DNA of 64,000 nucleotides from Scenedesmus sp. PABB004 (lineage: Eukaryota). The notes below the pieces were generated by a model, which saw only the letters and a list, made by a program, of their open reading frames with translations, searched no databases and was not told where the DNA came from. Location of the stretch: NCBI GenBank assembly GCA_014905635.1, contig JABVCE010000005.1, positions 868,001-932,000 of the forward strand, read 5' to 3'. Positions within the stretch are counted from its first letter, which is position 1, and each line of letters begins with the position of its first letter. Both the position numbers and the translations under genes were made by a program. This document shows positions 8,976-62,300 of the stretch, one piece after another.

Positions 8976-10525
8976 ATGATGCGCGCGCTGCAGCGGCGCG
9001 GCGGCAGCGGCGCGGCGGTGCCGCTGCCCGTCGCGTGCTGCCTCTGCCTGGCCTTCTACCTGTTCGGCTGCTACTCGCGCCCGGGCGGGCTCCCTGCCTC
9101 GCCAGGGGCCCAGGTGAGCAGCTGCCAGCGTGCGAGCGCATGCGCTCGGCGCGCGCTGACGGCGCCCCGCCCGCCCGCCCGCCGTGCGCCGCCCGCAGCT
9201 CGCGCCAGCACCGCGCAAGCTCCAGTCCCAGGGCTCTCAGCAGGCGCTGCAGCTGCAGTCGCAGCCGCAGTCGCAGCCGCAGCCGCAGCCGCGCCACGCG
9301 CTCGGCCTGGCGCTGCCGGGGCAGCTGCCCGACGCAGCCGAGTTTGCGGCGGCGTTCCTCGAGGCGTCGGGCCTCGCCGCGCTGCGGCCGCCCGTGACGC
9401 CGGCGGCGACCGGCGACGCGCACACGCGCGTCATCCCGTTTCAAATCCTGAGCTGGGCGCCGCGCATCGTCGTCTATCCCAACTTCATCGACGCCCGCCG
9501 CGCCGCGCACATCGTCGCGCTCGCCAAGTCGCGCATGGCGCCGTCCGGCCTCGCCTGGCGGCGCAGCGAGCGGCCCGACGAGGCGCAGCAGATCCGCACC
9601 AGCTCGGGCGTCTTCCTCGCCAGGCGCGGCGCCGGCGCCGGCGCGGCGGCCGGCGGCGCCGCGGCGGGGCGAAGGCAGGGCGCGGGCCCCAGGGTGCACG
9701 CGTTCTGACCTGTGCCGCCGCCGCCGCCGCCGCCGCGCTGCTTTGGTGGCAGGGAGGAGGACCCCAGCGGCGTGCTCGCCTGGGTGGAGGACAAGATTGC
9801 TGCCATCACGCTGCTGCCGACGAGCCACGGCGAGGTCCGCGGCGCCGCAGCCGCCACACGGCGCCACGCAGCCGCAGCCGCAGCTGCAGCCCACACGGCG
9901 CGCCGCCGCCGCGCCGCGCGCCGCAGTCGTTCAACGTGCTGCGCTACGAGCTGGACCAGAAGTACGACAGCCACATGGACACGTTTGACCCAAAGGCAAG
10001 GCGGGCGCGGGGCGGCACGCGTGGCGAATTGCGGTGCGCTCAGCCAGCCCTCGACGCGCGCGCCCGCGGCCGCGCGCAGGACTTCGGGCCGCAGCCCAGC
10101 CAGCGCATGGCCACGGTACTGCTGTACCTGTCCGACGTGCTCGAGGGCGGCGAGACGATCTTCAAGCGCGAGGGCGAACACGGTGCGGCGCGCGCGCGCG
10201 CCGCCGCCGCGCGCGCCGCGCCGCGCCGCGCCGGGCCGCGCCGTGGCCTGCGCGGCGCCCACGCGGCGCCCGCGCACACGCAGGCGCTGATGAGCCGGTG
10301 ACTGACTACGCGAGCTGCGAGCCGGACAAGTTCAAGTATCGGCCGCGCATGGGCGATGCAGTCCTGTTCTTCAGCTGCTCCCCCGACCTCACCATCGACC
10401 CCCGCTCGCTGCACGGCGGCTGCCCCGTGCGCCGAGGCGAGAAGTGGGTCGCGACCAAGTGGCTGCACGAGAAGCCGCAACCCAACTTTGCAGCAGCGGC
10501 GGCGGCGGCGGCGGCGGCTGAGTGA
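8976..10525 (+). CDS. P4H: Prolyl 4-hydroxylase (plant/algal type, N-terminal membrane anchor)
   Basis: Six predicted exons giving LSWAPRIVVYPNFI, RTSSGVFL, FNVLRYELDQKYDSHMDTF (HxD), QRMATVLLYLSDVLEGGETIF and SLHGGCPVRRGEKWVATKW. Two introns have GC donors (9624, 9996). Confidence 0.93.
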
Positions 10526-10778
10526 CGGCGAGCAACGCGCGCGACCAGGGCGCAGGACCGCTGCCGCTGAGCCTCCACTCTTCCTGCGCCCTCGCGCGCC
10601 ACCGCCGCCGCGTCGAGCAACAGCCGGGAACTCGAGCAGTGGCTTAAGACACTGCCAGCCACGCCGCGCACCGGTTTTGCGGGCCAGCCCGCGCGTCTGT
10701 TTCGGAGCATCCGCACACCTCCCGGCTCGCCCGGGCCGCAGCAGCCTCCCCCGAGCCTCGATACGAGTTACAGACGAG

Positions 10779-10883: not shown

Positions 10884-13800
10884 ATGGCGCCGCGCTGGCC
10901 GATGCTGATGGAGGTGAAAAGCGAGCGCCGGGCGACGCGCCAGACGCCCGCAGCCTCTCCTGTCTGGACCTCCCCGCTCTCCCGGGACGGCCCGCCGTCG
11001 CTGCCTGGCGTGTCGACGCTCTACGAGAGCTTTCAGTGAGCGGCGGCCAGCCGTCCAGCGCTGCCGCGCGCCCCAGGCGGCCGGCGCGGGGCCCCGCGCA
11101 CTCTGGCCCTGCACGAAAACGCCGCCCCTGCGCTGCCCCGCACCGCCCCGCCGCGCAGGGCGAGCGCCGAGCGCTGGGCGGACAAGCCGTGCCTGGGTCA
11201 CCGCCCCGTGGTCGGCGGCGTGCCGCTCGGCTTCACCTTCATCACCTACGGCGAGGCGGCCGCGCGCGTGGCGCGCCTCGCGGCGGCGTTCAAGGCCCTC
11301 GGGCTGCGCCGCGGCGACAAGGTCTGCATCCTCGGCCCCAACTCCCCCGAGTGGATGATAGGCATGCAGGTGCGCCCCCGGCGCGGCGCGGCGCGGCGGC
11401 CGGCCGGCGCACCCGCCGCCCGCGCGCGGTGCCGGCGCCGCCGGTGGCGGGCGCCGCTGACTCCGCGCTCTCTCTTGTGCACGCGCCAGGCGTGCAACCG
11501 CATGGCCTGCGTCTGCGTGCCCCTCTACGAGACGCTCGGCGAGACGGCGATCGACTACATCCTGGAGCACAGCGAGGCGCGCCTGGTCGTCGTGTCGGGG
11601 GGCCGCCTGGCGCGCGTCGCGGCCGCGCTGCGCGCGGGCGGCCGCGTCGCCGCGCTCGTCTTCTGGGGCGACGCCGCGCCCGCAGACCTCAAGGTGCGGT
11701 GACCGCATGGGGGGGGGGGGGCAGCGCTAGCCAGCAGCGCGGCGGCGCGCCGTGCAGCGCGCAGCCCGACGGCCGCCGCCCCCTGCCCGCGCGCGCAGGC
11801 GGTCGCGGCGGCCGGCGTGCGCGCGCTGAGCTTTGAGCAGGCCGTCGCGCTCGGCGGCGGCCGGCCCGCGGCGCCGGAGCCGCCGCTGCCGGGGGACCTG
11901 TCGACCATCATGTACACGAGCGGCACCACCGGTGCGCGCGCACCCCGGACTTCGAACGGGGGGTCGGCCGCGCCCCACCGGCCCCGGCCAAGGCGCTGCC
12001 CGGCGGCCGGCCAGCGCGCGGCGCGCGGCGCCCAGCGCCACGCCGCCCCGCCGCGCGCCGCGCCGCCGGCGGCAGGCACGCCCAAGGGCGTCATGATCAC
12101 GCACGCGGCGCTCGTGGCCACGATCGCGGGGTGCAACCAGTACCTCGCGAGCTTCGGCGAGACGCTCGGCCCCAACGACTCCTACCTCAGCTTCCTGCCC
12201 CTCGCGCACGTGTTCGACCGGTGCGTGTGCGGCCCGCCCCGCCCGGCGCAGCCGCAGGCGCGCACCCGCCGCCGACCGCGCCGCCGCCGCGGCCGCCGGC
12301 GCGCCGCCGCCGTCTCGCCGGGGCTCAGGCTGGCGGAGGAGTTCATGCTGCACAAGGGCGGCTGCATTGGGTACTGGCAGGGCGAGATTCCCAAGGTCTT
12401 GGACGACATCAAAGCCCTGCGTCCATCCCTGTTCTGCGGCGTGCCCCGCGTGTTCGACCGCATTTACGCCGGCATCAATGAGCAGGTATGGGGGCCGCGC
12501 CGTGCTGCCGCAGCGTGCGCGGCCACGCGCCGAGCGGGCGATCGCGGTCAACCCCGCCCGCCCGCGCCCCCACCCCGTGCCGCAGCTGCGCGCGAGCCCC
12601 CTCAAGTGGCTCGTCTTCCACCTGTGCCTCTGGCACAAGGCGCGCAACATGCGGCGCGGCATCCGCCACGACAAGGTGCGGCGCCCGGCGCCGACGTCCC
12701 ACGCCGGCTGTTGCAACCGTCCCACACCGGCGGCTGTTGCAACCAATTGGCCCCTGCGGTGACGCCCCCGACCTCGCGCGCCGCGGCCGCGCCCCGCAGG
12801 CGTCCCCGCTCGCCGACCTGCTGGCGTTCGGGTCGATCAAGGCCAAGCTCGGCGGCCGCGTGCGCCTCATCCTCAGCGGCGCCGCGCCGCTGGCCACGCG
12901 CGCGCAGGAGTTCCTCTCGGTCGCCATGTGCGCCCCAGTCATCCAGGCGAGGCCCGCCGCGCCGCAGCGCGCGCGGCCCTCGCCGCCGCGCCGCAGCGCG
13001 CGGGCCTCGCCGCCGCGCGCGCCCGCGCCCTGACCGGGCCCTGCCCCCGCCGCGCGCAGGGCTACGGCCTGACCGAGACGTGCGCCGCGTCCAGCATTGC
13101 CGAGCCCTTCCGCTGGGACACCATCGGCACCGTCGGCGCGCCCATGCCGGGTGCGCGCCGCCGCGCCGCCGCTCTGCACGCGCGCGCCGCCCCTCTCTCG
13201 ACGCGCGCGCTCAGCCCGCCGCCCCCGCTGTAGGTGTGGAGGTGCGGCTGGAGGCGGTGCCCGAGATGGGGTACGACCCCGCCGGCGAGCCGCCCGCGGG
13301 CGAGGTGTGCATCCGGGGGCCGGGCCTCTTCTCCGGCTACTTCAAGGAGCCGAAGCTCACCGCCGAGTGCATGGGTGCGCGGCGCGGCCTGGCCGCGCCG
13401 CCGGAGCCAGCCAGCACGCGCCGCGCGAGCAACGCGGTGCACGCGCGCCCCTGTGCTCACCAGCCGCCCGCGCGCCTGGCCCCCGCCCCTGCAGACGCCG
13501 ACGGCTTCTTCCACACCGGCGACATCGCGCGCCTCGTGGGCGGCGGGGCGCTGCAGATCATCGACCGCAAGAAGAACATCTTCAAGCTCAGCCAGGGTGG
13601 GTGGGCACGCAGGGCGCGGCGGCGCCAGCAGCGCGCGGCGGCGCACAGCGCGTGCAGCGGGCCGCGCCGTGGAATGCTGAGCCACCCGCGCCCGCCACCC
13701 CCCCCCCCCCCCCCCCCCACCCACCCACCCACCCCACCCGGCAGGCGAGTACGTCGCGGTGGAGAAGGTCGAGTCGGTGCTGAAGGCCTGCGCCCTGGTG

Positions 13801-14325
13801 GAGCAGGTGTGGGTGTACGGCAACAGCTTCGAGTCATGCCTCGTCGCCGTGGTGGTGCCGGCGGAGAAGGCCATCACCGCCTGGGCCGCCGCGCGCGGGC
13901 TGCCCGCTGACTACCAGGCGCGCCGCGCCGCGCCGCGCGCGCCCGCCAAAGCGACCGCCGCGCACGGCCGGCGCGCCGCCGCGTGCCCGCCCCGCCCGCC
14001 CGCGCGCCTGCCGCCCGCCCACTCCTGGCGTGCGCGCGCGCCGCGCGCCGCGCCCCGCGCGCAGGCCGTGGTCGGCTCGCCCGAGGCGCGCGCGCACGTG
14101 CTGGCGGAGCTGCAGGCGGCGGGGCGGGGCGGCAAGCTGAAGGGCTTTGAGCAGGTCCGCGCGGTCGCGCTCGAGGGCAGCCAGTTCAGCGTCGACAACG
14201 ACCTCATGACCCCCACCTTCAAGCTCAAGCGCCCCCAGCTCCTCAAGCACTACCAGGCCACCGTGGACGCCTTGTACGCGGAGCTGGCCGCCGCGGCGCG
14301 CCCCGCCAAGGCGGCCGCGTTCTGA
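10884..14325 (+). CDS. LACS: Long-chain acyl-CoA synthetase
   Basis: About 13 exons. AMP-binding motif [14 protein letters not shown], plus [48 protein letters not shown] and [13 protein letters not shown]. Confidence 0.95.
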
Positions 14326-14914: not shown

Positions 14915-17185
<2,271 letters not shown>

Positions 17186-17908: not shown

Positions 17909-20900
17909 ATGTCGCACATGAGCGAGCTCGGGCAGCTCTTCTCCAAGTCCACGACCGCAATCTTTTTCAACTACAAGGAGAAGCCCGTGCAGCGCATGCT
18001 CGACTTTGACTTCCTCTGCGGTGCGCCGCGCCGCCCGCGACGCACGCCCCGCCGCACGGGCCGGCAGCGCGCCGCCGCGCGCCGCGCCGCGAGCGCCGGC
18101 CGCCCGCGCAGGCCGCACCACGCCGAGCGTCGCGTGCATCGTGCAGCCCGGCTCCAAGGGCGGCTTCCAGAAGGTCTTCTTCGGCGACGAGGAGATTGCG
18201 ATCCCGGTGTACGGCAGGTGTGGGACTCGCCCCGCGCGCGCCGCAGCACGGCAGCCGCCCCGCGGGCGCGCTGCGGCTGCCGCGGCGCGACGGCCGCATG
18301 GCCCGGCGCGAACCGTGCTGCCGCGCCGCGCAGCACGACCGAGGCGGCCAGGAAGCACCCCAAGGCCGACGTCTTTGTCAACTATGCCTCCTTCCGCAGG
18401 TGCGCGGCGCGGGCCGCCCCACGGCGGCAGCAATGGCGGCGCACGCCCGCCGCGCCGTGCGCGCCTGCTGCGCCCGCTCACCGCCGCGCCGCCGCGCCGC
18501 CGCGCCGGCGCGCAGCGCGTTTGAGTCGACCATGGAAGCGCTCGCGACCGCGACGGTGCGCGTCGCCGCGGTCATCGCGGAGGGCGTGCCCGAGAAGGAC
18601 ACGAAGCGCCTGATCGCGTTTGCCCAGGCCAACAACAAGGTCATCATCGGCCCCGCGACCGTCGGCGGTGTGCAGGTGCGCGGCCGAGAGGCGCGCGCCC
18701 CCGCCGCTGCCCACCAGCGCCGCGCTGCCCGCCCACACGGCCCGCCGCCGCCAACCCACCGCCCACACGGCCTGCCGCCGCCAACCCGCCGCCCGCACGC
18801 CCCGCCGCCCGCCGCCCGCCGCCCGCTGCCGGCCAGGCGGGCGCGTTCAAGATCGGCGACACCGCGGGCACGCTCGACAACATCATCGCCTGCAAGCTCT
18901 ACCGCCCCGGCTCCGTCGGCTTTGTCTCCAAGAGCGGCGGCATGAGCAACGAGCTGTACAACGTCCTCTCGCGCGCGACAGACGGACTTTACGAGGGTGC
19001 GCCCCCCCGCGCCGCCGCCGCGCCGCGCCACGCCGCGCCACGCCGCGGGTCGGGGCAGGCGCCCCCCGGCCCGCACCGCGCCCGCCCCACCGCGCCCCGC
19101 GACGCGCGCGCCCCGCCAGGCATCGCGATCGGCGGCGACACGTTCCCCGGGTCGACGCTGAGCGACCACTGCGTGCGCTACCAGAACATCCCGGCCATCA
19201 AGATGATCGTCGTGCTCGGCGAGCTCGGCGGCGCCGACGAGTACAGCCTCGTCGCGGCGCTCAAGGACGGTGCGCGGCGGGCGCTGCGCCTGCGGCTGTG
19301 GGGGCCGGCGGTGGGTGCGGTGGGGAGCGTGCGTGTGGGCGAGCGAGCGTGTGTGGGCGAGCGAGTGCGGCGATGGTCAGGGCGTCGTCGACTATGCCGT
19401 GCGGCGTCATGAGGAGGAGGACATCCTGATCACGCCGCACGGCACAGTCGGTGACATCCGGACCGCCATCAGGCCGCGACCCGTTGCGTGTGTGGTGGGG
19501 GGGTGCGTGTGTGGGTGGTGGGTGGGCAGGCACGTACGGGAGGAGGCGCAGGGCGGTGGCGGCGGCCGCTGCCAGCGCGCGCCCTCGCCCACGCCGCCGC
19601 CGCAGGCAAGGTCACCAAGCCCGTGGTCGCCTGGGTGAGCGGCACGTGCGCCAAGCTGTTCAAGAGCGAGGTCCAGTTTGGCCACGCCGGCGCGCGCAGC
19701 ACGGGCGAGAGCGACAGCGCGCAGGTGCGGCGCGGCAGGGAGGCCAGGGGCGCGCGGCCGCGGACGCGCCTCGCCCCGCTGCCGCGAGCGCGCGCGCCGC
19801 CGCTCCTCCGCCCGCCGCGCCGCGCAGGCCAAGAACGCGGCGCTGGCGGCGGCGGGCGCGGTCGTGCCGGAGAGCTTTGAGGGCCTCGAGGCCGCGGTGC
19901 GCGACACCTTCAACAAGTGAGCGGCTGCCCGCCGCCGCCGCGCGCACGCGCCGGGTGGCGTCCCGGCTCACCGCGCCCCGCCGCGCCGCGGCCCTGCTCA
20001 CCGCGCCCCGCCGCGCCGCGCCGCGCCGCCAGGCTGGTCGCGGACGGCGTGCTCGTGCCGCAGCCCGACATCGCGGTGCCCGAGATCCCCATGGACCTCG
20101 CGACCGCGGTCAAGCTCAAGAAGGCGCGCGCGCGCGCGCCGGGGGGGGGGGGGGGGCGCACGCTGCGCGGCGACGCCGGCACGACCGCCTGCGCACTCAC
20201 GCGCGCCTGCGCACTCACGCCGCGCGCTCTGCACGCCGCGCGCGCACCGCCCCGCAGGTGCGCAAGCCGACCAACGTGGTGTCCACGATCTGCGACGACC
20301 GCGGCGAGGAGCCGACGTACTACGGCGTGACCATGAGCGAGCTGATCGAGGAGGAGTACGGCGTCGGCGACGTGCTCAGCCTGCTCTGGTTCAAGCGCAA
20401 GCTCCCCAAGTACGCGACCAAGTTCATGGAGATGTGAGAGGGTCGCGAGAGAGGGAGGGAGGGAGGGAGAGCGGGGCGCGGCGCAGGCGGCAGCGGGCGC
20501 GGCGCCGGCGCCCCTTGCCCGCCGCCGACCTCGCGCGGCGCGCGGCCCGCAGGTGCATCATGCTGTGCGCCGACCACGGGCCGTGCGTGTCGGGCGCGCA
20601 CAACGCGATCGTGACGAGCCGCGCGGGCAAGGACCTGGTGTCCTGCCTCGTCAGCGGCCTGCTCACGATCGGCCCCCGCTTCGGCGGCGCCATCGACGAC
20701 GCCGCGCGGTGCGGCGGCCGGGCGTGTCGCGCCGCGCCGCGCGCCGCCCGCCGCCCGCCGCCCGCCGCCCGCCGCCCGCCGCCCGCGCCGCCGCGCGGCC
20801 CCGCGCCGCGCCGCGCCACCCCTCCACGCTGCCACGCCGGCGCCGCGCGCAGGTGCTTCAAGCGCGCCGTGGACGAGGGCCTGGCGGCGCCCGAGTTTGT

Positions 20901-21697
20901 GGAGGGCCTCAAGCGCCAGGGCAAGCGCGTGCCGGGCATCGGGCACCGCATCAAGTCCAAGGACAACCGCGACAAGCGCGTGGAGCTGCTGCAGGACTAC
21001 GCGCGCAAGGTGGGGGGCGGGCTGTGACGACTGGCGCGCACACCGGCGGGCGTGCAGATGGGGGCATGCGGCGGCGCGGCGGCTGGCCCACGCACACGCT
21101 CACGCGCCCCGCCGCCCCCTCTCTCCCTCCCTCCCTCCCTCCCTCCCTCCATGCGTGCCCCCGGCGCCCTGCGCCCTCAGTTCTTCCCGGGCCACAAGCA
21201 CCTCGACTACGCGCTCACGGTCGAGGAGTACACGCTGGCCAAGGCGGCCAACCTGGTGCTCAACGTCGACGGCTGCATCGCGGCGCTCTTCCTCGACCTC
21301 CTCTACTCCAGCGGCGCCTTCACGCCCGCAGAGGCGCGCACAGCGGCGGCGGCGGCGGCGGCGCGCCTCGCGCCCCGCACCGCGCACACACACACATGCG
21401 CACCCACGCGCACGCGGCCACGCGCGCACACTCACGCAGCCACACCCGCGCACGCACACCCATGCACGCCGCGCGCACCGCAGATGTCTGACATCATCGC
21501 CGTGGGCTACCTGAACGGCCTCTTTGTGCTCGCGCGCAGCATCGGCCTCATCGGCCACGCGCTCGACCAGAAGCGCCTCGCGCAGCCCCTCTACCGCCAC
21601 CCCTGGGAGGACGTGCTCTGTGAGGCGGCGCCGCGCCGCGCGCGCGCGGCGGGGCGCAGGCCGGCAGGGGCTGGCGCGCGCGCGCGCGCACACGGGG

Positions 21698-21728
<31 letters not shown>

Positions 21729-26160: not shown

Positions 26161-28864
26161 TCACGCCGCCGCCGCGGCCGCGGACGCCGCCTCCTGCTGC
26201 GCGCTGAGCACCACGCCCGCCTCGGCGGCGGCGCGGTGCGCGCTGAGCAGGGCCTCGTCGTACACGACGCCGCCCGCGCCGAGGCCGCCCGCGCGGCCGC
26301 CGCCGGCGCCGCCGCCCAGGCGCAGCGCGGACCGCAGCGCGGCCCACGCGCCCGCGGCGCGCATCGCGGCCATCGCGAGCTCCAGCCGCGCGCGGCCGAG
26401 CGCGCCCGCGAGCCACGCGCCGGCGCCGCCGGCGCCGGGGCCGCCGCCGCCGGCGCCGCCGCCGGGCTCGGCGAGCGCGCGGGCGCAGGTCTTGGCGGTG
26501 ATGACAAACGTGTTGACCGGCGCGCCGAGGCAGAGGTCGACGCTGCGCAGGCAGTCGTTGGTCTTGAGCAGCAGCAGCAGCGGGCGCGGCATGCGCAGCA
26601 GCAGGTCGCCGATCTGCTTCGCGTAGATCGCGGCGTAGCCCTGCATCATCGCGCGCTCCTCCGCGCCGCGCCCGACCGCGAGGTGCTGCAGCTGCGGCTC
26701 CACGATCTGGCACGCGGCGTGAGCGGGGCGCGGCGCGGGCGGCGTGAGCGGCGGCGCGGCGGGAGCGGGGCGTGAGCGGCGGCGTGCGGCGCGCGCGCGC
26801 GGCGCCGGGCCGGCGCGCGCGGGGCCGGGGCGGCGCGCGTGGCGCCCCACCTGGTCCCAGGGCCGCATGGTCAGCATCGCCGCGAAGAGCGGGTACGCGT
26901 CGCCCTGCGCGCGGCGCCGGCGCGCGGCGGGCGGGCTCGCGGCGCAGCAGGGCGGGAGCCGCCGCCCGCCGCGCCGCGCCGCGCCGCGCCGCGCCGCGCG
27001 CCGCCGCCCCCGGGCCGCTGCATCATCATCATCTCGCGCGCGCGCACCGCGTTCATCGACTCTGCGTGCGCCTTGATGCCCGCGCGGTCGGCAAGGATGA
27101 GCGACCGCCAGAGCGCCGCGTACTCGTGCCTGAAGGCGTCGTCGATCTGGCGGTACAGCCCGTGGTCCAGCAGCACCAGCTGCACGCCGCCGCCGGGCCC
27201 GCGCCGCACCAGCTGCGCGCGCCCGTCGCGGCGGCGCGCGGCGGTCAGTCAGCTCGGCGGCTCGGCGCAGCGCGCGCGCGCGTCGCCACGCCGCCGCTTC
27301 GCCCCGCCGCACGCCCGCACGCCCGCACGCCACCGCCCGCGCGCGGCCGCACCATGTTTGCCGCGTGGGGGTCGCAGTGCACGTCGCCGTGAATGAAGAT
27401 CATCTCGGCAAACGTCTGGCTCACGAGCGACGCGAGCGCGCGCGGCGACACGCCGAGGCGCGACAGCCCGCCGCGGTCGGTGACCTGCACGCCGTCGATG
27501 TACTCCATCGACAGCACGCGCGCCGCGCTCAGGCCGGGGAGCACCTCCGGCACGTGCACCCTGCGCGTGGCGCGGAGGCGTGGGGCGGCGCGAGAGGGGG
27601 TGGGCCGCCACCGCCGCCGCCGCGGGGCCGCGCCGCGCGCTGCCCTCCCGCCGCCCGCCCGCGCCTGCCCCCGACGGTGCTGCGCGGCGACGCGAGGTTG
27701 GCGGCGCAGCGCGCCGCGTTGGACGCCTCGTGCCGGAAGTCGAGCTCGAGCGGCAGGTTGGTCCTGACCTCATCGACGAGCCACTGGTAGTTGAAGTCTG
27801 GGAAGGCCAGCCGCGCCGCGCTCACGAGCGCCTCGATCGTCGCAACGTCGGCGGCGCACGACTCGCGCAGCCCCGCGTGCTGAACCTTGACCGCGAGCTT
27901 GCGCCCGTCGTGCGTGTGAGCGACGTGCACCTGCGGCGGCGGGGCGGGGCGCGGGGGCGCGCCGGGCGGGGGCTCGGCGCCCGCCGGGGCGCGCCGCGCG
28001 GGGCGCGCGGACGCGCTGCTGCCCCGCGCTGCCCCGCGCCGCGCCTGCGCCAGCGACGCGCTCGCGATGGGCGTGGGGCTGAAGCTCGCGAACAGCTCCT
28101 CCGGCGGCGCGCCGAGGTCCTCCCGGATCGTCTGTCGCACCTCCTCCCAGCTGCTCACGGGGCACTTGTCCAGCATGTGCGCCCGCATCGTGTGCACGTA
28201 CTCCTCGGGCAGCAGGTGATCCTGCGAGACACAGCGCAGCGCGCGGCTCGGCGCCGCCGCGCACGCTCGCGGCGCGCGGGGCGCCGGCGCCCGGCGCCTG
28301 CGCTCTGCCGCCTGCCCTCTGCGCGCGCGCACCAGCTGGCCGATGTGCTGGCCCAGCTTGATGTAGATGCCGCCGTTGTCGAAGCACAGCTTGAGCAGCC
28401 GGTCCGCGCTGCGCTGGTGGCACGCGCGCAGCGCCGCGTCGCGCGCCTCCGCGTCGCCCTCGGGCAGGCCGGCCAGCGACGACTTGTAGTCTGGCGCAGG
28501 CGCGCGCGGCGGCCGCGGCGGGGTCGGCGCCGCGGCGGGCGGGCGGCGCCGCCGGCGGCGCGGCGCACGGCGCGCGCGCACCCATGACGATGGACGCCGC
28601 GGCCGCGACGTCGCGCGCGAGGCGCGTGGGTATGAGGTAGGCCAGCCGCGCCGCCTCCCACGCGCCGTCCGACTGGCTCGCCCACGCCGCCGCGCCCGCG
28701 CCGGCGAGGTACTTGGCCCCCAGCGCGAGCTTGGAGGCGCCGGCGGGCCCCGCTGCCGCCGCCGCCGCGCCGCCGGCGGCGACGGCGCTCTGCTGCCGCG
28801 CTGCCGCCGCCGCCGCGCCGCGCGCGGCCGCCGCCAGGCGCGGCAGCGCCGCCAGGCGCTGCAT
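26161..28864 (-). CDS. ABC1/UbiB atypical kinase (ADCK1-like)
   Basis: Motifs [65 protein letters not shown] and LLLLLKTND. Ala/Arg-rich transit-like N-terminus. Confidence 0.93.
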
Positions 28865-29321: not shown

Positions 29322-31202
29322 ATGGCGCCGGTGGAGGTGCTGTCCATCGCTTACAACCAGGACTACGGCTGCTTCGCCTGCGGCACGACCACGGGCTTCC
29401 GGGTGTACAACTGCGACCCCTTCAAGGAGACGGTGCGCGCGCCGGCCAGGCGCCACAGGCGCCCCCCGCCGCGGCGCGGGCCGCGCGACCGACCGCCGCC
29501 GCTGCTCCACGCAGTTTTGCCGCGGCTTCAACAACGGCGGCATCGGCATCGTGGAGATGCTCTTCCGCTGCAACATCCTGGCCATCGTGGGCGGCGGCCC
29601 GGCGCCAAAGTACCCGCCGACAAAGGCGCGCGGCTGGCGCCTCGCGGTCGCCGGCGGCGCTCGCCGCAGGCATGCGCCGCGCGGCGCCGCGCCCGCCCGC
29701 GAGCTCGCGCGCCCGCCGCCGCCGCCGCCGCGCCGGGCAGGTCATGATCTGGGACGACCACCAGGTCAAGTGCATCGGCGAGCTCAGCTTCCGCAGCCAG
29801 GCGCGCGGCGCCGGCGGGCGGGCGCGGGCGCGGCGGCCGCGCTGCGCGGCGGCGTGGCGTGCTCAGCGCGCAGCCCCGCCCCCGGCCGGCCCCGTCCTCC
29901 AGGTGCGCGCCGTGCGGCTGCGGCGCGACCGCATCGTGGTGGCGCTGGAGCACAAGGTGCTGACCTACAACTTTGCAGACCTGAAGCTGCTGCACCAGAT
30001 CGAGACGCTTGGCAACAGCCGCGGCCTGCTCGCCCTTTCCTCGGCCGCCGACGCGACCGTGCTGGCGTGCCCGGGCCTGCACACCGGCCAGGTGCGGGCG
30101 CGGCGGCGCGGCGGGCGCGGCGGCGCGGCGGGCGCGGCCGCGGCGGCGGCGCGGCGCATGACGGCGAGCAGAGCCGCGGCCAGCGGCGCGGCCAGCGGCG
30201 CGGCCGGGGGCCGACGCGCCGCCGCCGCGGCCGCCAGGTGCGCATCGAGCTGTACGACCGGAAGCAGACCAAGTTTATCAGCGCCCACAACACGCCGCTC
30301 GTTTGCCTCACGCTCTCGCTCGACGGCAAGCGCCTCGCCACCGCGAGCGACAAGGGCACGCTCGTGCGCGTGTGGAGCACCGCCGACGGCTCGCTGCTGC
30401 AGGTGCGCGCGCGGCGCGGGGGCGCGCGGCAACGTCCGAGCGCGCGTGGCGCGCCGGCAGGTCGCGCAGCGCGCCCTTACGCGCCGCCCGCCCGCCCGCC
30501 GCCGCCGCTGCGGTCGGCTCGCGCCGCAGGAGCTGCGGCGCGGCACGGAGCCGGCGCACGTGCACAGCATCGCGTTCTCCAAGCACTGCGAGTGGCTGGC
30601 GGTCAGCAGCGACAAGGGCACGGTGCACGTGTTTGCGCTCGCGCCGCACGTCGTGACCGGCAGCGAAGAGGGCGACCCGGCCAAGGCCGGCGACGCCGCG
30701 CCCGCGCCGGCGGCGGCTGCCGCCGCCGCCGCCGCGCGCCAGCAGCAGCTGCAGCAGCAGCAGGAGCAGGAGCAGCAGCAGCAGCAGGGGCGTCACAACC
30801 CGACCAGCATGCTCAGCAACCTGGTCAAGGTGCGGCGCGCCGCCGGCGCGGGCGGCCGCTCGGGGGCGCCGCGCTCGGCGCGCGCCACGCGCCGTCGTGT
30901 GACCGCGCCCCGCCCGCCCGCCCGCCCGCCCGTGCGCCCGCCGCCGCGCGCAGAGCTACGTGCCCATCCCGCTGCCCAAGTACTTTACGAGCGAGTGGTC
31001 GTTCGCGCAGTACAAGCTGACCGAGGACGACACGGGGCGCAGCCTCGTGGGCTTTGCCGCGTCCGACCCGCACGCGCTCGTGGTCATCACGCAGTCGGGG
31101 CGCTACCACAAGGTCAGCTTTGACCCCGCCAAGGGCGGCCCCTGCACCCAGACCGCCTTCGGCTGCTACATCGTGGCGGGCGAGGACGACGGCGCGAGCT
31201 GA
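29322..31202 (+). CDS. ATG18: Autophagy PROPPIN (ATG18/WIPI family)
   Basis: Seven exons. Motifs [55 protein letters not shown] (phosphoinositide site), [10 protein letters not shown] and [13 protein letters not shown]. Confidence 0.95.
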
Positions 31203-43020: not shown

Positions 43021-44392
43021 ATGGCAGCCAACTTCTGGACCTCCACGCAGCTGTGAGAGGCGCATGGGAGCGCTCTGGAGCGGCCTGCGGGCGCGCGCGA
43101 CCGCGCGGGCTGCGCGGCAGCGGCGGCGCCCCCGAGCCCGCGCGTGCGCCGCCCGCCCGCAGCAAGTGGCTCATGCCCAAGGAGCGCCTTCTGCAGAGCC
43201 AGCAGGAGGACCGCGCCAAGGGGCTGACCGAGCACCACATACAGCAGCTGAAGGTCTACTTCACCCAGTGTGCGGCGCCGGGCGCCTCGCGGAGCAGCGC
43301 AGCAGCGCCGCCCGCCGCGGCGAGGTCGCGCGCTGACGCGCGCCGCCCCGCGCCGCGCTTGTGCGCCCGCAGACATCTACGACCTCGCCAACGCGGTGCA
43401 CGTGCGCCAGCGGTGCGCCCCGCGGCGCGGCGCCCGCCAGCGAAGCCGCCGCGCGGCCGCCCCGCGCGGCCGCCGACCCGCGCGCCGCGCGTCGCCGCCG
43501 CCGCGCCCGCAGCGTCGCCGCCACGGCGGTCGTCTACTTCCGCCGCCTCTTTGCGGGCAGCAGCTTCAGCGCGCACGACCCGCACCTCGTCGCGCCGGGG
43601 TGCCTCTACCTGGCCGGCAAGGTCGAGGAGAGCGTCGTCGCGGCGCGCGCGCTGCTCGCGAGCATGCGCCGCCTGCGCCCCGCCTGGCCCTACGAGCTGC
43701 GCGACCTGCTCGACATCGAGATGGTGCGGCGCGGTCGTCCGCCACGCCGCCCCGCCGCGCCGCGCCGCGCCGCCCGGCGCCACGCCCGGCGCAGCGCTGC
43801 GAAGCCGCGCCCGACGCCGCGCTGCGGCGCCGCGGCCGGTCGGGCCAGGTCATCCTGGAGGAGCTGGACACGCACCTGGTCGTGTTCTCGCCCTACCTCA
43901 GCCTCACCAAAATCCTCGACGGCGGCGAGGCGATGGTGCGCGACCTGGGGCAGAACGCGTGGGCCGCGCTCAACGACGCGTACCGCACCGACGCGCCGCT
44001 CGTGCACGCGCCGCACGTGCTCGCGCTCGGCTGCCTCTACCTCGCGAGCGTCGTCGCGGGCGTCGACATCACGGCCTGGCTCGAGGGCGTCGACGTCGAC
44101 ACCAGCCAGGCGCGGCGCGCTCGCCCGCGCCGCCGGCCCGGGCCGCCGCCTCCGGGGGCGCGCCGCGCACCGCAGCGCCCGGGGCGCAGCGTTGAGCCGC
44201 TGCGTGCTTGCGTGCGTGCGTGCGCAGGTGTACGCGGTGTCGCTGGAGCTCATCACGCTGTACGAGACGTATCGCGTCATCCCCACGCCCGACGAGGCCG
44301 CGCGCCTGCTCGCCGTCGTGCGCGCGCCGCCGGCGCCGGCGCCGCCGCCCGGCACGCCGCCGCCGCAGGCCGCCACGCCGCCGACCGGCTGA
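43021..44392 (+). CDS. CYCC: Cyclin C (Mediator kinase module)
   Basis: Six exons. Motifs MAANFWTSTQ, VRQRVAATAVVYFRR, DPHLVAPGCLYLAGKVEES, ILEELDTHLVVFSPY and AWAALNDAYRTD. Confidence 0.94.
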
Positions 44393-45212: not shown

Positions 45213-47946
<2,734 letters not shown>

Positions 47947-51400: not shown

Positions 51401-51575
51401 CGCGTTTGCCTACAGCAGGCTCTGGACCGACTGGGCCGAGCCGGGCCTGCCCGACGGCGCGCCCGCGGGCAAGGGCGCGGACGACGTCGCAGAGGGCACG
51501 CGGGGCGCGTCGGACGCCGCGGCGCCGGCGGCGGTCGCTGGCGGCAAGGACGCGACCGTGGGCGCGGCCAGCTGA
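48500..51575 (+). CDS. Sodium:solute symporter family transporter
   Basis: Many TM segments. Motifs FFTMSASLFSGYT, GYMTVSEFIFDRY, GGMRAVAYTDVLQG and AISAMMSTADSALLA. Probable 5' UTR intron at 48220-48497. Confidence 0.88.
50627..50732 (+). repeat. Intronic 19-nt minisatellite GCTGACCGCCGCGCCGCGC
   Basis: One shortened, four full and one partial unit inside intron 50593-50757. Confidence 0.9.
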
Positions 51576-52260: not shown

Positions 52261-53566
52261 TCACAGCACGCCCGCGTCGGCGATGAGCACGCGCTTGAGC
52301 GGGCGGTTGAATCGCTTCTCAGCGACCGTCGCGCGCTTGTCGCCCATCGCCTTGCCAGCCTCAAAGAAGGGCTGCGCGGCCGGCGGCGGCGGCGGCGGTG
52401 GCGCGCGTGTCGGGCGGCGCGCGGCGGCGGCGGCCGCCCGGGCGCGGCGGGCGCGGCGGGCGCGGCGGGCGCGGCGGGCGCGGCGGGCGCGGCGGGCGCG
52501 GCGGGCGCGGCGGGCGCAGCGGGCGGTGAGGGCGGTGCGCGCCTTGTCGTAGTAGCTGTCCCGGGGGCGCGCGAACGGCAGCGCCGACAGCGCGGCGACG
52601 ACGTCCATGCCCGCGACGACGCGCCCGACGACGAGGTTGGTTTTGTCGAGCTCCGGCGTCGGCGCGGTGGTGATCATGAAGCCCGTGCCGTTGGGCGCCT
52701 CGCCCGCCTGCTCCTTGACCGTGACCAGCTTGCCCCGCATCGCCACGAGCCGCTCCTTGACCGGCCGCTCCGTGGCCTCGCGCACGACGAGGCTGACCAG
52801 GCCCGCCGCGTCGTGCCGCGCGCTGCTCGCGGCGAGCTCCTCCTCGAGGCCCTGCATCGAGTCGCCGCCGGCGATGAGGCTCGCGCCGTCGGCGCTGTAG
52901 GACAGCGACTTGACGCCCTCGTTGCGCACGTACGTCTGCGCGTGCCCGCGGCGCCCGCGGCGGCGGGTCGCCCCCTGCGCCGCGCCGCGCCGCCGCGCTG
53001 GCTCAAGCCTGGAGGCCGCGCGCCGCTGGTGCCTGGATCAAGCCTCCGGTCGCACCGGGAAGATGCCATCAAACTTGCTCAGCCGGTAGCCCACGCCCGC
53101 CTTGCCCTCTGCGCGGCGGGGCGGGGGCCGTCGTCACACGACTGCGGCCGCGCGGCGCGCGCAGGGGGGCGCGCGCCACAGCGCGCCGCGTACCGGCGAG
53201 GTCGGCGAAGCGCGCGCCGCCGACGCCAGAGCTGTCGAGCTGCACGACGATGCGCCCGAGCGTCTCGCCCTCGACCTTGACGTCCAGGAAGACGCGCCGC
53301 CCCGCCGCGCCGGCGACAGCGGCCGCGCCTCCCTCCTCCTCCGCTCGCGCGGCACGTGGCGCCAGGAGCACCACATTCGCGGCCACCGTCGCGGCGAGCA
53401 GCTCTCGCCGGCCGACCGCGCACGCGCCGCCCGGCGCGGGCTGCTGCCGCTGCTGCTGCCGCGCGGGCGGCGCCGCGGCGGCGCGCACGGCGCCGCGCCG
53501 GCTACGCCCGCACGCTGTGCAGCTGGGGCCGCCCGCCGGCGGCCTGTGCGCGACCAGCGGCTTCAT
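52261..53566 (-). CDS. CYP26-2: Chloroplast thylakoid-lumen cyclophilin, CYP26-2-like
   Basis: Transit peptide followed by Tat signal RRELL...ARA. Motifs RVFLDVKVEGETLGRIVV, PNGTGFMIT, PELD..NLVVGRV and GDKRATVAEKRFNRP. Confidence 0.82.
52442..52516. repeat. Intronic 9-nt tandem repeat (GCGCGGCGG)n
   Basis: About eight copies in the last cyclophilin intron. Confidence 0.85.
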
Positions 53567-54098: not shown

Positions 54099-54129
<31 letters not shown>

Positions 54130-55882
54130 AGCAGCGCGTACGAGCCAGGGCTGCGGGGCTGCTGCTGGGGCGGCGACCGCTCGCCCGCCGCCGCCGCCGC
54201 CGCCGCCGTCAGCAAGGGCTGCGGCGTGCCGGCCTGGGCAGCGCGCAGCGAGCCGCCGCCGCTGGGCGACGCGCCGCCGCCCGGCTCGCTGCGCGCCGCC
54301 CGCTGCCGCGCGGTCGGCACCAGCGCGCGGCTGCTGCTGACGGCGCGGGGCGCGGCCGGCCCTGGCCGTCTGGTGCCGCCCTCGAGCGCCTGCTGCTGCT
54401 GCAGCAGGACCACCTGCTCGAGCGGCGGCGCCGCGCAGCCAAACGGGGCGCCGCCCGCGCCCTGCAGCGCCGCCGCGCTGAAGGCCTGCTGCAGGAAGGC
54501 CTGGGTCGCCGCCTGCGCGCGGCGCCGCCAGGGGTGTGGTCGGCCGCCGGCGGCCGGCCGCGCCCGCGCCCCGCTGCGACCCGCTGCGACCCTGCGCGCG
54601 CCTCGCGCCTGCTGGTAGCTCGCCGCCGCCGCGATCGCGCCGCTGAGCGCGTTGCTGGCCTCTCGATGGCCAAAGAGCCGCTCGATGAGGCCGTCCAGCT
54701 TGCCATTGGTGGCCTCGAGCTCGCGCTTGCGCTCGACCACCTCGTCCTTGGCCTCCGCGATGGCGGACGCCGCAAGCGCGGCCTGGCGCTTCCAGCGCTC
54801 CATCTCGGCGACCGTGGCGGCCGTGCGCCGCTCGAGCTCGGCGCGCACGCGCGCCAGCTCGCCGCGCACGCGCTCGGCCTCGCCGCGCAGCGCCGCCTCG
54901 CGCGCCTCGACGCCAGCGGCCAGCCCCGCGCGCTCGGCGGCGACCGCGCCGCGCGCGCACTCTTCGTTGTGCGCCACGGCGGCCTGCGCGCGGGGCGCGC
55001 GACGCAGGGCGCGCAACGCGCTGGGGCGCCGCCAGGAGGCGCTGCGCTGCGCGCGTGCGGTGGCAGCTCCCCAGTTCACCACCGGTGACTCACCTGCGCC
55101 TTGGCGAGCTCGCTGCGCGCGGTGTGGAGCTGGGCCTCAAAGTCGGCGCGCATCAGCTCAAGCTCCGCGCGCTCCAGCCGCACCGCCTCCTGCTCGTCCG
55201 CCAGGCTCGCGGCGCGCTGCCGCGCGTCGCGGCCGCCGGCGGCGAACGCGGCGCGCGCCTCGTCCGCGGCGGCCGCCGCGGCCGCGGCGGCCGCCTCTGC
55301 CGCGACGCGCGCCGCGGTCTCTGCCCGCAGCTGCCGCTCGTAGTGGAGCAGCATGTCCTCCAGCTCCGCCACGCCCGGCCGCCGCAGCTGCTGCAGCGGC
55401 TGCGGTGGTGGCGGTGGTGGCGGGGCCGCCGGCCGCTGCGGTGCGGCCTGCTCCAGCAGCTGCGGCGGCTGCGGCGGCTGCGCCTGCTGCGATGGCTGCG
55501 GCGGCTGCGCCTGCTGCGCCTGCTGCACCTGCTGCGGCTGGTGCACCGACTGCGCCTGATGGGGTGCCGACTGCGGCTGGTGCACCTTGCGGGGCGGCAG
55601 CGCGAGCGGCGGCGGCGCGGGCGGCTCGTTCCGGTCCTCGGGCTCGCCGCCCCGCCGCCGCCATCGCTCCTGCTGCTCTTGCTCCTGCATGTCCTGCTGC
55701 TGAGATGGCTCCTGCTCCTGCTCCAACTCCAGCGCCCCGTGCTGGGGAGCCGGTCGTTGCCCGGCGGGCGGCGGCGCGCGCTCCACGCGCGGGCGGCCGC
55801 GCGCTGGCTGCGCTGCCTGCTGGGTGAGGACCGCCTGCTGCTGCTGGCCCGACTCCGGCTTGCGGGCGAAGAGGTCCCACAT
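53892..55882 (-). CDS. Hypothetical Gln/Pro-rich coiled-coil protein; 3' end uncertain
   Basis: Starts MWDLFARKPE. Coiled-coil LEDMLLHYERQLRAE...ELEATNGKLDGLIERLF. Introns at about 54984-55093 and 54513-54608 (GC donor). Confidence 0.6.
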
Positions 55883-59300: not shown

Positions 59301-62300
59301 GAGGGCACGTGGATGGCGGCCGCGTGGCGGGTGCTCGCCGGCGTTGGGCCGCAGGGCATCTCCGTCACAGAGGTGCGTGTGTGCGCGCGCGCGCGCGGCG
59401 GGGGCGGCCGCTGCGGCCGCTCTGCGCGCTGCGGCCGCTGCGTGCGCGGGCGCCGCCGCCGCTGCGCGGCGCACCGCTGAGCGCCGGCTGAGGCCGCTGC
59501 GGCCGGCGCCGGGCTGTGGGCGCAGATGGTGCGTGTCATCGCGTCGCGCGGGTACCGCGACATCAGCACCAGCAAGAACCCCGACAACAGCCTCTCCGGG
59601 GCGCTCAGCCGCGACGTGCTCTTCCAGCGCCTGCGCGCCGGCACCTACGCGCTGCAGGCGCGGCGCGGCGGGGGGCGCGGGGCGCAGGGGCACGCAGCGC
59701 GCGGCGCGGGGTGCCTGCGGCGTCTGAGAGCCCCGCCCGCCTCCCTGCCCTGCCGCGCCACGCCGCGGCGGCGCGCAGTCTGTCGTGGCGTACCACGCGC
59801 GCATGGCGGCGGCGGGCAAGCCCGCGGTCGTGGAGCCGCCGCCCGAGGCGCTCGCGGCGGCGCCGCGCGGGGCGGGGCCGGTGGAGGAGAGCGAGGACAT
59901 GGACGACAGGTGCGGCGCGCGCGCGGTGTAGGAGGCGCGGGGCGCCGGGGCGCAGTGCACATTCACAGCGTGTCTGTGTCGGAGGGGCGGCGTCGGCACG
60001 CTTCGCCTGCCTCACGCCCGCGCCGCGCGTGCTCGTCGCCGCCCGCAGCGAGGGCGGCGAGGACGAGGCGGTCGCGCGCGCGCCCGAGGACGCGCCCGGC
60101 GCGGAGCCCTGGGTGTCGGCGCTGAAGCACGGGCCGTACGACGCGCTGCCGCTGCGGGAGCGCCTCTCCGCGCTGCTGTGGCTGGTGGGGCTGGTCATGG
60201 ACGGCATTGGCGTGCGCAAGCGCCTCGACGCGCGCGAGGCGGAGGTCGCCGCGCTCAAGCGCCAGCTCGCGGAGGACGTGCGCGCGGAGAAGAAGCGGCG
60301 CGCCGACGAGGCGGCCGCGCGCGCGCGCGCGGCGGCCGAGGAGGCGCAGCGGCGCCTCGAGCGGCTGCAGCGCGCGGCCGCGTCGGGCGAGGCGGTCGCG
60401 CCGGAGCAGATGGCCGCGGCCGCGGCCGCCGCGGCGGCGCTCAACTCGGCGGCCGGCAGCGGCAGCGCGCCGGGCGCGGCCTCGCGCGCGGCGACGCCGG
60501 GCCCCGCCGCCGGGGGCACGCCGCAGCCGGGCGCGGCCGCCGTGCCGGTCAAGCAGGAGGGCGGCGATGCGGCAGCCGCCGCAGCGGAGGTCAAGGCGGA
60601 GGGCGGCGACGCGGCGGCAGCTGCGGCGGCGGTCAAGGTCGAGGGCGGCGACGAGCCGATGCCCGACGCCGAGCCGGCCGCCGCCCAGGCGCCCAAGCAG
60701 GAGCAGCCGGCGGCGCCCACGGCGCCCGACCCCGCCGACGCGGCCGCCGCGCGCGCTGAGCTCGCCGCGGCGGTCGCGGCTGAGTCCGCGCGGCGCGCGG
60801 CGCGCGCGGAGGCGATCCGGCGCTGCGAGGAGCTCAACGTGCTGCGCCTCGAGCCGCTGGGCAGCGACCGGCGCTTCAACCGCTACTGGCTGCTCACGCC
60901 GCCGGACTGGGGCGCGACCGCGGCGTACGCGGGCGGCGCCGGCGCCGGCGGCGACGACGGCGACGCGGCGCGCGCGGGTGCGGGGCCGGCGCGGCCGTCG
61001 CGGGCTGCCGCGGCCGGCGCCGCGGCCCCGGCCGCCGACGCCGCGCCGGCCGCTGACGCCCCCCTGCTCTGCTCTGCGCGCAGGCGGGCCGCCCGACGCC
61101 AATGCAGGGCGCATCTTTGTCGAGGACGGCAACGGCGGGCGCTGGCGCGTCATGCTGCGGCCGCAGCAGCTGGACCAGCTCAAGCAGGTGGGCGGGGAGG
61201 CCCGCGGCGCGGCGCCGCGGACTGGCCGCGGCGCTGCGGGCTGGCCGCTGACGCCGCGGCGCCGCCCCGCGCCCCGTGCGCACGCAGGCGCTGGAGCCGC
61301 GGGGCGTGCGCGAGGGCGCGCTGCACGCGGCGCTGCTGCGCGTGGAGGCGTCGCTGCGCGCGGCCATGCCCGGCGCGCCCTTCGCCGTGCCGCGCCCGCT
61401 GGGTGAGCTGCGCACGCGCCCGCCGTGCGGCCGCCGCTCGCCGCGTCGCGCCACGCGCTGAGCCCCGTTCCGCGCGACCGCTGCGCGCTGCAGACCAGCA
61501 GTCGCCGGAGGAGCGTGGCGTGGCGCTGGCGGCGGCCGCGCGCTGGCTGCAGACGCAGCAGCTCACGGCACGCATGCTGACCAGCCAGGAGCAGGAGGCG
61601 GCCATCGCGGCGGCGCTGGCGGCGGCGGGGCCGCAGCAGGCGCTCGGGCCGGAGGTGCAGCAGCTGCAGGCCGACATGCTGCGCGTGGAGGCGCTGCTGG
61701 CGGACACGATGCAGGTGCGCCTGCGCATGCCAGCAGCCTGCGCCGAGCGGCGGCGGCGCCCGTGCGACCCGCAGCGACCGGGGCGCTCACGCCGCTGTGC
61801 ACGCGCGCCGGCCCGCGCAGGCGACCACCAGCTTCGACCGCCAGGCCTGGGTCGCCGCGGTCGCGGGCGCGCCCGACCTGGCCGCGCTGCGCGGCTGCCT
61901 GGCGCAGCTGGAGGCGGCGCTCGCGGCGGAGGGCTCGGACGTCGCGGAGGAGCGCAAAACGCGCGGCCAGGCCAAGGCGGAGGCGGAGCGCATCCCGCTG
62001 CTCTCGCCGGCCTGGCAGCTGCTGGCGGGCACGCCCTGCGTGAAGGGCGCGTGGCTGGCCTGCGGCGCCGAGGTCGCGGCGGCGCAGCTCGACACGCTGG
62101 GCCAGCTCGTGCCGGCGCGCCAGCTCGGCGCCGGCGAGCCCGCCGGCGACGCCGCCGCGGCCGCCGCCGCGCCGGCCGACGCGGCGGCGACCGCGGCCGC
62201 GCACCGGCGCGAGGACGCGGCGCACCGCCGCGCGCAGCTCCTCGCGGGCCTCGGCTGGCTGCCCGCCACGTCGCCCGCGCTCGCGCTGCGCCTCGCCGCG

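Follow-up and report, generated by a model that had tools for sequence, protein, structure and literature searches.

Genes and GC-AG introns of the window

The 64,000-nucleotide (nt) stretch of nuclear DNA analysed here, referred to as the window, comes from the green alga Scenedesmus sp. PABB004 (contig JABVCE010000005.1, positions 868,001 to 932,000 of the forward strand), and about one in five of the introns in its protein-coding genes begins with GC in place of GT. By reconstructing conserved proteins by hand, a preliminary description had listed 23 such GC donors among roughly 110 introns, and this observation is confirmed, well beyond chance. All 23 coordinates fall on the G of a GC on the strand given, and 23 to 29 of about 112 introns in the window are GC-AG introns, as are 6 of the 24 introns of the public gene model P0001. 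The window has a G+C content of 79% throughout (0.77 to 0.82 in 4-kb windows). Nearly everything is open at this composition, with 654 stop-free stretches of at least 40 codons in the six frames of the whole window, so open reading frames are uninformative here. In addition, about 16% of all dinucleotides are GC, an abundance at which such donors could well appear by chance; the sites were therefore tested in several ways. The 23 introns are listed below, with a slash at the junction between exon and intron.

9624..9752, plus strand, prolyl 4-hydroxylase gene, CAG/GCGCGG
9996..10079, plus strand, prolyl 4-hydroxylase gene, AAG/GCAAGG
12947..13059, plus strand, long-chain acyl-CoA synthetase gene, CAG/GCGAGG
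13918..14064, plus strand, acyl-CoA synthetase gene, CAG/GCGCGC
15551..15693, plus strand, class-III aminotransferase gene, AAG/GCGCGC
16874..17008, plus strand, class-III aminotransferase gene, AAG/GCGCGC
20124..20257, plus strand, ATP-citrate lyase B gene, AAG/GCGCGC
21334..21483, plus strand, ATP-citrate lyase B gene, GAG/GCGCGC
27931..28044, minus strand, ABC1/ADCK-type kinase gene, CAG/GCGCGG
29626..29740, plus strand, PROPPIN/WIPI (Atg18-like) gene, AAG/GCGCGC
29801..29902, plus strand, PROPPIN/WIPI gene, CAG/GCGCGC
38511..38623, minus strand, Rrp45 (exosome) gene, after a 19-codon first exon, CAG/GCGCGC
41004..41146, minus strand, START-domain-like gene, AAG/GCGCGC
44110..44227, plus strand, cyclin C-like gene, CAG/GCGCGG
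45531..45665, plus strand, UDP-galactopyranose mutase gene, CAG/GCACGC, used by P0001
45840..45931, plus strand, UDP-galactopyranose mutase gene, CAG/GCGCGG, used by P0001
45998..46104, plus strand, UDP-galactopyranose mutase gene, CAG/GCGCGC
46249..46387, plus strand, UDP-galactopyranose mutase gene, AAG/GCGCGC, used by P0001
46595..46703, plus strand, UDP-galactopyranose mutase gene, CAG/GCGCGC, used by P0001
48922..49038, plus strand, sodium:solute symporter gene, ACG/GCAAGC, probable
52372..52542, minus strand, cyclophilin-type gene, AAG/GCGCGC
54513..54608, minus strand, coiled-coil, low-complexity gene, CAG/GCGCGA
59658..59778, plus strand, homeobox/DDT-like gene, CAG/GCGCGG

The lengths of 12 of these 23 introns are not multiples of 3, the intron at 9624 contains an in-frame stop, and the hosts are conserved enzymes; this implies that splicing would be needed for the function of these genes.

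Codon periodicity and donor choice

A hidden Markov model (HMM) with seven states, one for non-coding DNA and three codon positions for each strand, was trained on the window from codon-position composition only and contained no splice signal. It called 138 coding segments, and at 18 of the 23 claimed sites a segment 3' end lies no more than 3 nt from the donor. The motif AGGCGCG lies within the same distance of a segment 3' end in 15 of its 87 occurrences, compared to 0.66 expected (binomial p = 2e-16). No such excess is seen for the control motifs CGGCGCG (7/578), GGGCGCG (2/280), AGGCGGC (0/68), AGGCCGC (1/59) and AGCGCGC (1/145), and the GT counterpart AGGTGCG, used as the positive control, stands at segment 3' ends in 16 of 40 occurrences.

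Every frame-compatible, stop-free combination of a GT or GC donor with an AG acceptor between neighbouring same-strand segments was also enumerated and scored by coding and non-coding composition together with one donor matrix and one acceptor matrix, which both donor classes shared; since an AG acceptor was required, every chosen acceptor is AG. The claimed donor is the best choice at all 22 evaluated sites. The 23rd site, 38623 on the minus strand, is absent from the enumeration because its 19-codon first exon was not called by the HMM, and it is also the best choice once this exon is added by hand. Altogether 116 candidate introns were obtained (85 GT and 31 GC). Those of at most 300 nt number 112, with 84 GT and 28 GC donors, the latter comprising 22 claimed sites and six weaker extras, with 38623 on top; those with a margin of at least 3 nats number 102 (78 GT and 24 GC).

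The extra GC candidates at 4286, 37702 (minus strand), 55804 (minus strand), 57045, 23975 (minus strand) and 27664 (minus strand) have small margins or lie in low-complexity genes and were left uncounted, as were the putative introns longer than 300 nt at 47888, 53938 (minus strand) and 36253 (minus strand), which are probably gaps between genes. One of the extras, outside the list of the preliminary description, lies in the ABC1 kinase gene:

27561..27664, minus strand, ABC1 kinase gene, CAG/GCGCGG, probable GC-AG intron

Its donor is the best in the model, with the next donor 6.6 nats and the best GT 13.3 nats lower; the flanking Pfam ABC1 coordinates overlap by about 3 positions, which leaves its placement unsettled.

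Homology tests with the donor left free

Homologs were fetched with single exons as queries, profiles were built from them, and the frame-compatible junctions were scored with the donor dinucleotide left open and an AG acceptor required. Labels such as MMETSP mark many of these homologs as derived from transcripts, and they are thus free of the same annotation habits. In all 11 introns tested in this way (45531, 45840, 45998, 46249, 46595, 20124, 21334, 12947, 13918, 29626 and 29801), the claimed GC donor is the unique best junction. For the GT control introns, the consensus donor was recovered exactly in 25 of 27 cases, and the other 2 were off by one codon. At the homology-tested sites the homologs lack the residues that the intervening introns would encode. 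The four profiles performed as follows.

UDP-galactopyranose mutase: 64 of 120 listed homologs (440-600 residues, P0001 left out); GC donors 5/5 unique best by 2.2 to 6.3 bits; GT controls 3/3 exact
ATP-citrate lyase B: 74 homologs; GC donors 2/2; GT controls 11/11 exact after one false exon was dropped
Acyl-CoA synthetase: 9 homologs of 600-950 residues among 150 listed matches, mostly fragments; GC donors 2/2; GT controls 8/9 exact, one off by one codon
PROPPIN/WIPI: 66 homologs; GC donors 2/2; GT controls 3/4 exact, one off by one codon by 0.1 bit

The scores of the individual junctions, each the unique best of its intron, are given in bits.

12947: 842.0; next junction 835.3; best GT 827.4
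13918: 842.0; next junction 837.0; no frame-compatible GT in range
20124: 1213.9; next junction 1211.2; best GT 1197.7
21334: 1213.9; next junction 1208.7; no GT candidate in range
29626: 647.6; next junction 641.6; best GT 636.6
29801: 647.6; next junction 641.7; best GT 609.8
45531: 871.1; next junction 868.9; best GT 864.2
45840: 871.1; next junction 867.8; best GT 862.5
45998: 871.1; next junction 865.2; no GT candidate
46249: 871.1; next junction 864.8; best GT 849.1
46595: 871.1; next junction 865.4; best GT 835.4

The ATP-citrate lyase B gene also contains a GT-AG intron of 336 nt (19270-19605, plus strand), about three times the usual length, in which a stretch of 139 nt (19333-19471) shows coding-like periodicity. 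Homologs lack this stretch, and the profile score is 1193.6 bits with it and 1213.9 bits without it; possible explanations are an alternative exon, a decayed exon and chance. Several GC donors, among them 16874 and 20124 (plus strand), open directly into (GC)n runs (AAG/GCGCGCGCGCGCGCG), so that the donor signal belongs to a simple repeat whose length could change in either direction through slippage.

Further junctions were approached by aligning read-through queries, made of an exon, an in-frame stop-free intron and the next exon, to solved structures; two were fixed to the residue (16874 and 28044) and two were supported (9996 and 9624). In the aminotransferase, the last residue of exon A aligns to residue 378 of chain 6tor_A and the first of exon B to residue 379, and the 45 residues coded by the intron at 16874 have no counterpart in the chain. 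Similarly, at 28044 in the ABC1/ADCK-type kinase, the exon end corresponds to residue 147 of 5yjz_A and the next exon start to residue 148; the Pfam ABC1 profile passes from position 45 to 46 across the same junction, and no GT candidate lies in range. For the prolyl 4-hydroxylase intron at 9996, whose donor is the best in the model, chain 3itq_A is continuous from residue 139 to 140 and query residues 29-57 (29 residues) are skipped, which fits the 28-codon intron within one residue. At 9624, the donor is likewise the best in the model (next donor 8.3 nats lower, best GT 23.1 nats lower), and homology with 2jig_A breaks off precisely at the last exon residue (query residue 142). Beyond it another 27 residues are open in frame, and read-through then runs into a stop. 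For the short exon that follows 9624, the search of solved structures gave unrelated chains only.

Pfam was run on 97 of 122 exon translations, the remaining 25 coming from four low-complexity gene chains. It gave usable coordinates for few junctions, and none for the prolyl 4-hydroxylase exons before the last or for the mutase, START, WIPI and sodium:solute symporter exons. One of the usable cases is 15551 in the aminotransferase gene, where the Aminotran_3 profile is continuous across the junction (by extrapolation, the exon ends at about position 88 and the next one starts at about 87) and the best GT is 27.5 nats below the claimed donor, which is the best in the model.

At the remaining sites the placement follows from the composition and signal model. 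The donor of the Rrp45 intron (38623) scores 49.3, and the best GT, located 6 nt upstream, scores 37.5; the first exon found no match among solved structures, and the alignment of the second exon to a solved structure did not tell the two donors apart. In the START-domain-like gene, the next donor is 14.1 nats and the best GT 21.6 nats below 41146, and retention would break the frame because the intron length is not a multiple of 3. The donor at 44110 is the best in the model and gives the sole junction that reproduces the public protein P0001. For the cyclophilin-type gene, the next donor is 9.3 nats and the best GT 25.3 nats below 52542, and the alignment of the read-through to solved structures stopped short of this junction. 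The next donor is 8.0 nats lower at 54608, where the intron is in frame and stop-free, and 10.1 nats lower at 59658, where the best GT is 16.3 nats lower and the intron length is not a multiple of 3. As a separate observation, the intron at 52372-52542 (minus strand) contains a short tandem repeat, which translates into repeated Ala-Arg-Arg units in the read-through frame.

Donor signal and dependence on the exon end

The donor consensus in this alga is (C or A)AG/GTGCG(C or G), and the GC class carries the same signal with C at position +2. The two classes compare as follows (78 GT donors, 22 GC donors).

Position -2: A in 34/78 GT donors and 21/22 GC donors
Position -1: G in 70/78 GT donors and 22/22 GC donors
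Position +3: G in 75/78 GT donors and 19/22 GC donors
Position +4: C in 64/78 GT donors and 19/22 GC donors
Position +5: G in 78/78 GT donors and 22/22 GC donors
Position +6: C in 45 and G in 24 of 78 GT donors; C in 14 and G in 7 of 22 GC donors

Position -3 of the GC donors is C in 12 and A in 9 of 22. Median intron lengths are similar (116 nt for GT and 119.5 nt for GC). The sequence ATCC, as in U12-type donors of the form (A or G)TATCCTT, was found at +3 to +6 or +2 to +5 in 0 of 23 GC donors, and branch-site-like CTNAY motifs showed no enrichment in either class (7/22 GC and 29/84 GT introns).

The two classes differ on the exon side. The preliminary description had stated that all GC donors but one follow an exon ending in AG, that GT donors tolerate other exon ends, and that this suggests a compensation rule. 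Indeed, AG precedes the GC in 22 of 23 cases, the exception being 48922, which is preceded by CG; among the GT donors, 28 of 78 follow AG and 50 follow other exon ends. Since the shared donor matrix itself favours G at -1 and A at -2, the count was repeated on homology-fixed junctions only, and the rule held: AG stands before 15 of 15 GC donors compared to 11 of 25 GT donors (Fisher p = 3e-4). In terms of matches to the textbook nine-position donor consensus, the GC donors (mean 5.65) equal the GT donors without AG (5.66), and the GT donors with AG reach 6.75; at least 5 matches are found in 23 of 23 GC donors and 77 of 78 GT donors. Equal match counts in GC donors and non-AG GT donors are what a fixed strength threshold predicts, in which a C at +2 would be affordable only if the exon side pays for it.

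Public gene model P0001

The public protein P0001 (named 'cyclin-C1-1 [Scenedesmus sp. PABB004]' by its source, 1,473 residues), which was obtained in a protein search with one exon, maps letter for letter onto 43173-51572 on the plus strand, with 24 introns that are each uniquely determined, 18 with GT and 6 with GC donors. The GC donors are 44110, 45531, 45840, 45998, 46249 and 46595, that is, 6 of the 7 claimed sites in that stretch. As P0001 needs six GC donors, GC-AG introns are already implicit in deposited gene models. At 45998 the model uses the same donor with a later acceptor (intron end 46137), compared to the acceptor at 46104 that homologs support, and it reads through 48922-49038. 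It also fuses the unrelated cyclin C-like, UDP-galactopyranose mutase and sodium:solute symporter genes by way of introns of 969, 272 and 278 nt.

Orthologous introns in relatives

The preliminary description had proposed a comparison of orthologous introns in relatives of lower G+C. A metagenome scan with an alignment of 25 homologs kept 80 loci, the majority of which are distant or have no introns; of the 14 loci inspected, about half have introns, and a position shared with an intron of the mutase gene of the window occurs in L012 and L023 alone:

L023:750-817, shared mutase intron with GC donor
L012:461-590, shared mutase intron with GT donor

At this position (DQ/A in the protein, corresponding to 45531), the donor is CAG/GCGCGC in L023 (69% G+C) and GAG/GTGAGG in L012 (75% G+C), and the GC donor of L023 is the best by profile (874.7 bits; a GT located 9 nt downstream reaches 869.2 bits). 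Relatives therefore differ in the base at +2 of one old intron, and GC donors also occur outside this assembly. The comparison thus supplied one shared position with both states; two loci give no trend. The introns of L023 are only 62 to 103 nt long.

Interpretation of the GC donors

Based on the results presented above, these are very probably ordinary U2-type introns whose 5' splice site has GC in place of GT. Strong G+C pressure, by mutation bias or biased gene conversion, may turn the T at +2 into C, and the C would survive only where the other contacts between splice site and spliceosome are strong enough, that is, at exons ending in AG, usually CAG or AAG. Position +2 would then be nearly free at AG-ended exons and strictly kept as T elsewhere, and the contacts that compensate for the C may be those made by the U1, U5 and U6 small nuclear RNAs (snRNAs). 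A further and more tentative suggestion, which we rate as possible but would not yet favour, is that +2 acts as a natural titration of splice-site strength: after AG, T and C would be close to interchangeable (44% C), and after other exon ends C would be nearly forbidden (2%).

Several points weigh against this interpretation or narrow it. Seven sites (38623, 41146, 44110, 48922, 52542, 54608 and 59658) are placed by the composition and signal model, and because the shared matrix favours AG, the AG count is partly circular for these seven. The donor at 48922, which is the weakest of the 23, breaks the AG rule, has a model margin of 4.0 nats and is read through by P0001. The removal of the GC introns from RNA is deduced from reading frames and homology. 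A genome-wide share would be an extrapolation from 64 kb to a genome reported as 39.8 Mb. Finally, G+C alone is not decisive, since the haptophyte Emiliania huxleyi has 56% GC-AG junctions at 65% G+C, compared to about 21% here at 79%; something lineage-specific must also play a part.

The alternatives can be weighed against the same data. For the introns at 48922, 52542 and 54608, it is unlikely, although conceivable, that the stretches are low-complexity coding insertions, which would lower the true count by a few. Their lengths (117, 171 and 96 nt) are multiples of 3 and stop-free, so that retention is possible in principle, P0001 does read through 48922, and high intron retention has been reported in E. 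huxleyi (Feldmesser et al., PMC4028052). However, the composition of their read-through frames (-0.18, -0.22 and -0.19 per nt, respectively) is non-coding, close to that of GT introns (median -0.17) and far from that of exons (+0.19); seven other in-frame stop-free GC introns of the same composition are absent from homologs; and the translations of the three stretches are runs of Arg, Ala and Pro, one of them inside a membrane transporter.

It is also rather improbable that changes in the splicing machinery of this lineage, for instance at the U1 5' end or in donor-reading parts of U5, U6 or Prp8, allow it to accept C at +2 and a signal of the GTGCG type. The preliminary description had suggested an adapted spliceosome, and in most introns the donor consensus GTGCG(C or G) does differ from the textbook signal at +4 and +6. 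Nor does G+C content account for the differences in GC share between lineages. On the other hand, no observation made here requires such a change. The strict need for AG is what unchanged machinery predicts, and the GC donors match the consensus as often as weak GT donors do; moreover, compensation is a general published property of the ordinary spliceosome and does not by itself point to an adapted one. The one snRNA gene of the window, a complete U2 gene, lies between protein-coding genes at 25429-25620 on the minus strand and matches Rfam RF00004 with 142 bits over model positions 1-192. It is identical to the Rfam consensus, and thus unchanged, in its first 47 positions. We take the branch-site pairing region to lie within these positions.

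That the GC donors are artefacts of hand placement and the real introns use nearby GT donors is very improbable, and this reading is largely refuted. It draws on the abundance of GC at 79% G+C and on the frame-compatible GT that occurs within 60 nt at 18 of the 22 evaluated sites, as well as 6 nt upstream of 38623; the GT at 45834 (GTGCAG) is fairly donor-like. Against it stand the homolog profiles, in which the junction fell on the claimed GC in 11 of 11 introns with the donor left free, the best GT alternative being 6.9 to 37.8 bits lower and 3 of the 11 introns having no GT in range, together with the two junctions fixed to the residue (16874 and 28044). The alternative GTs also lack the G at +5 that all 78 GT donors have, or the GCG at +3 to +5 that most of them have, and the enrichment of AGGCGCG at segment ends was obtained with no splice signal in the model. 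An assembly or polishing error with a true T at +2 is hardly conceivable, as such errors would ignore the exon-end rule (22/23 compared to 28/78), the independent contig L023 has CAG/GCGCGC at the orthologous intron position, and GC donors have been confirmed by published reverse transcription PCR (RT-PCR) in another GC-rich alga (PMC4028052).

Comparison with known systems

That GC-AG introns make up about 1% in most eukaryotes, as the preliminary description had put it, is a fair statement, although lineages with 14-17% and with 56% have been published. Thanaraj and Clark reportedly described compensation at GC 5' splice sites in 2001. Neither the enrichment in GC-rich genomes nor the compensation is new, and the present window is a clear green-alga case of the two.

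The closest published parallels, as far as the passages covered here extend, are other GC-rich algae. In E. huxleyi, 56% of 241 curated junctions are GC-AG at 65% G+C, 9 GC junctions were verified by RT-PCR, and the large share is explained by its authors with the high G+C content (Feldmesser et al. 2014, PMC4028052). As in the window, GC donors form a large class in a GC-rich algal nuclear genome and the acceptor is still AG; the differences are that E. huxleyi is a haptophyte and not a green alga, that its share is far higher at lower G+C, and that some of its GC junctions were verified by RT-PCR, whereas those of the window are deduced from reading frames and homology. No exon-end rule is noted in the covered passages of that paper. 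In the pelagophytes Aureococcus anophagefferens and Pelagomonas calceolata, predicted GC-AG shares of 14-17% and about 14%, respectively, approach the 21-25% found here, and a lower-GC relative has 0.32%, the share being tied to high G+C (bioRxiv 10.1101/2024.10.30.620910). These algae are stramenopiles with 0.1 to 0.9 introns per gene and the values are prediction-based, compared to 6 to 13 introns in the genes tested here. The high nuclear G+C of such GC-rich algae is also found in the present case, with 79% in the window and 78.5% reported for the genome of Scenedesmus sp. PABB004 (39.8 Mb, 7,092 genes; PMC12571836). The same source gives lower values for relatives, with 57.5% for Scenedesmus sp. 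NREL 46B-D3, 57% for Tetradesmus and 71.5% for Raphidocelis.

In animals and plants, GC 5' splice sites account for about 1% of introns and show a compensatory consensus (PMC3167603, PMC1557818), compensation being described for human GC donors (PMC3167603). According to the passages covered, those sites resemble the present ones in being U2-type and in offsetting the weak +2 by stronger neighbouring positions, notably the last exon bases. Here, however, the frequency is about 20 times higher and nearly all of the compensation is found in the exon (AG); the intron retains the local GCG(C or G), with no shift towards AAGT. Genome G+C also correlates with the G+C of splice-site dinucleotides in animals, fungi and plants (Frey and Pucker 2020, PMC7072748), and the window agrees with this trend that GC-rich genomes carry more GC in splice sites. 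The correlations are weak (r = 0.24 to 0.43) and concern genomes averaging 36-47% G+C, with nothing near 79% in the covered passages of that study. Our literature search, whose coverage did not extend to the genome paper of the strain, found no report on GC-AG introns in this strain or its genus.

Notably, the share is lower than in E. huxleyi despite a much higher G+C content, and the window provides a green-alga data point on why GC-AG shares vary so widely among GC-rich lineages. If the titration idea holds genome-wide, no higher GC-AG share would be known in the green lineage, and the comparison with E. huxleyi would imply that lineages differ in the tolerance threshold of their spliceosomes and that this threshold, not G+C alone, sets the share. 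In a genome of 79% G+C, thousands of natural exchanges between T and C at +2 would be available within a single cellular background, and the clean dependence on the exon end would allow a quantitative test of how exon-side and intron-side contacts add up. In practice, gene finders that accept only GT or penalise GC heavily would misplace about one fifth of the junctions in this genome and its relatives; P0001, with three genes fused and one probable intron read through, shows the strain on gene finding.

Neighbouring genes

Outside the genes described above, two neighbouring genes on the plus strand (1-2077 and 2704-6327) encode long Ala/Pro-rich proteins. In both, repeated modules of the form ...D..GR.WGW....SCAFR... 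follow a single hydrophobic segment, and the two genes appear to be tandem paralogs that encode a secreted or wall protein.

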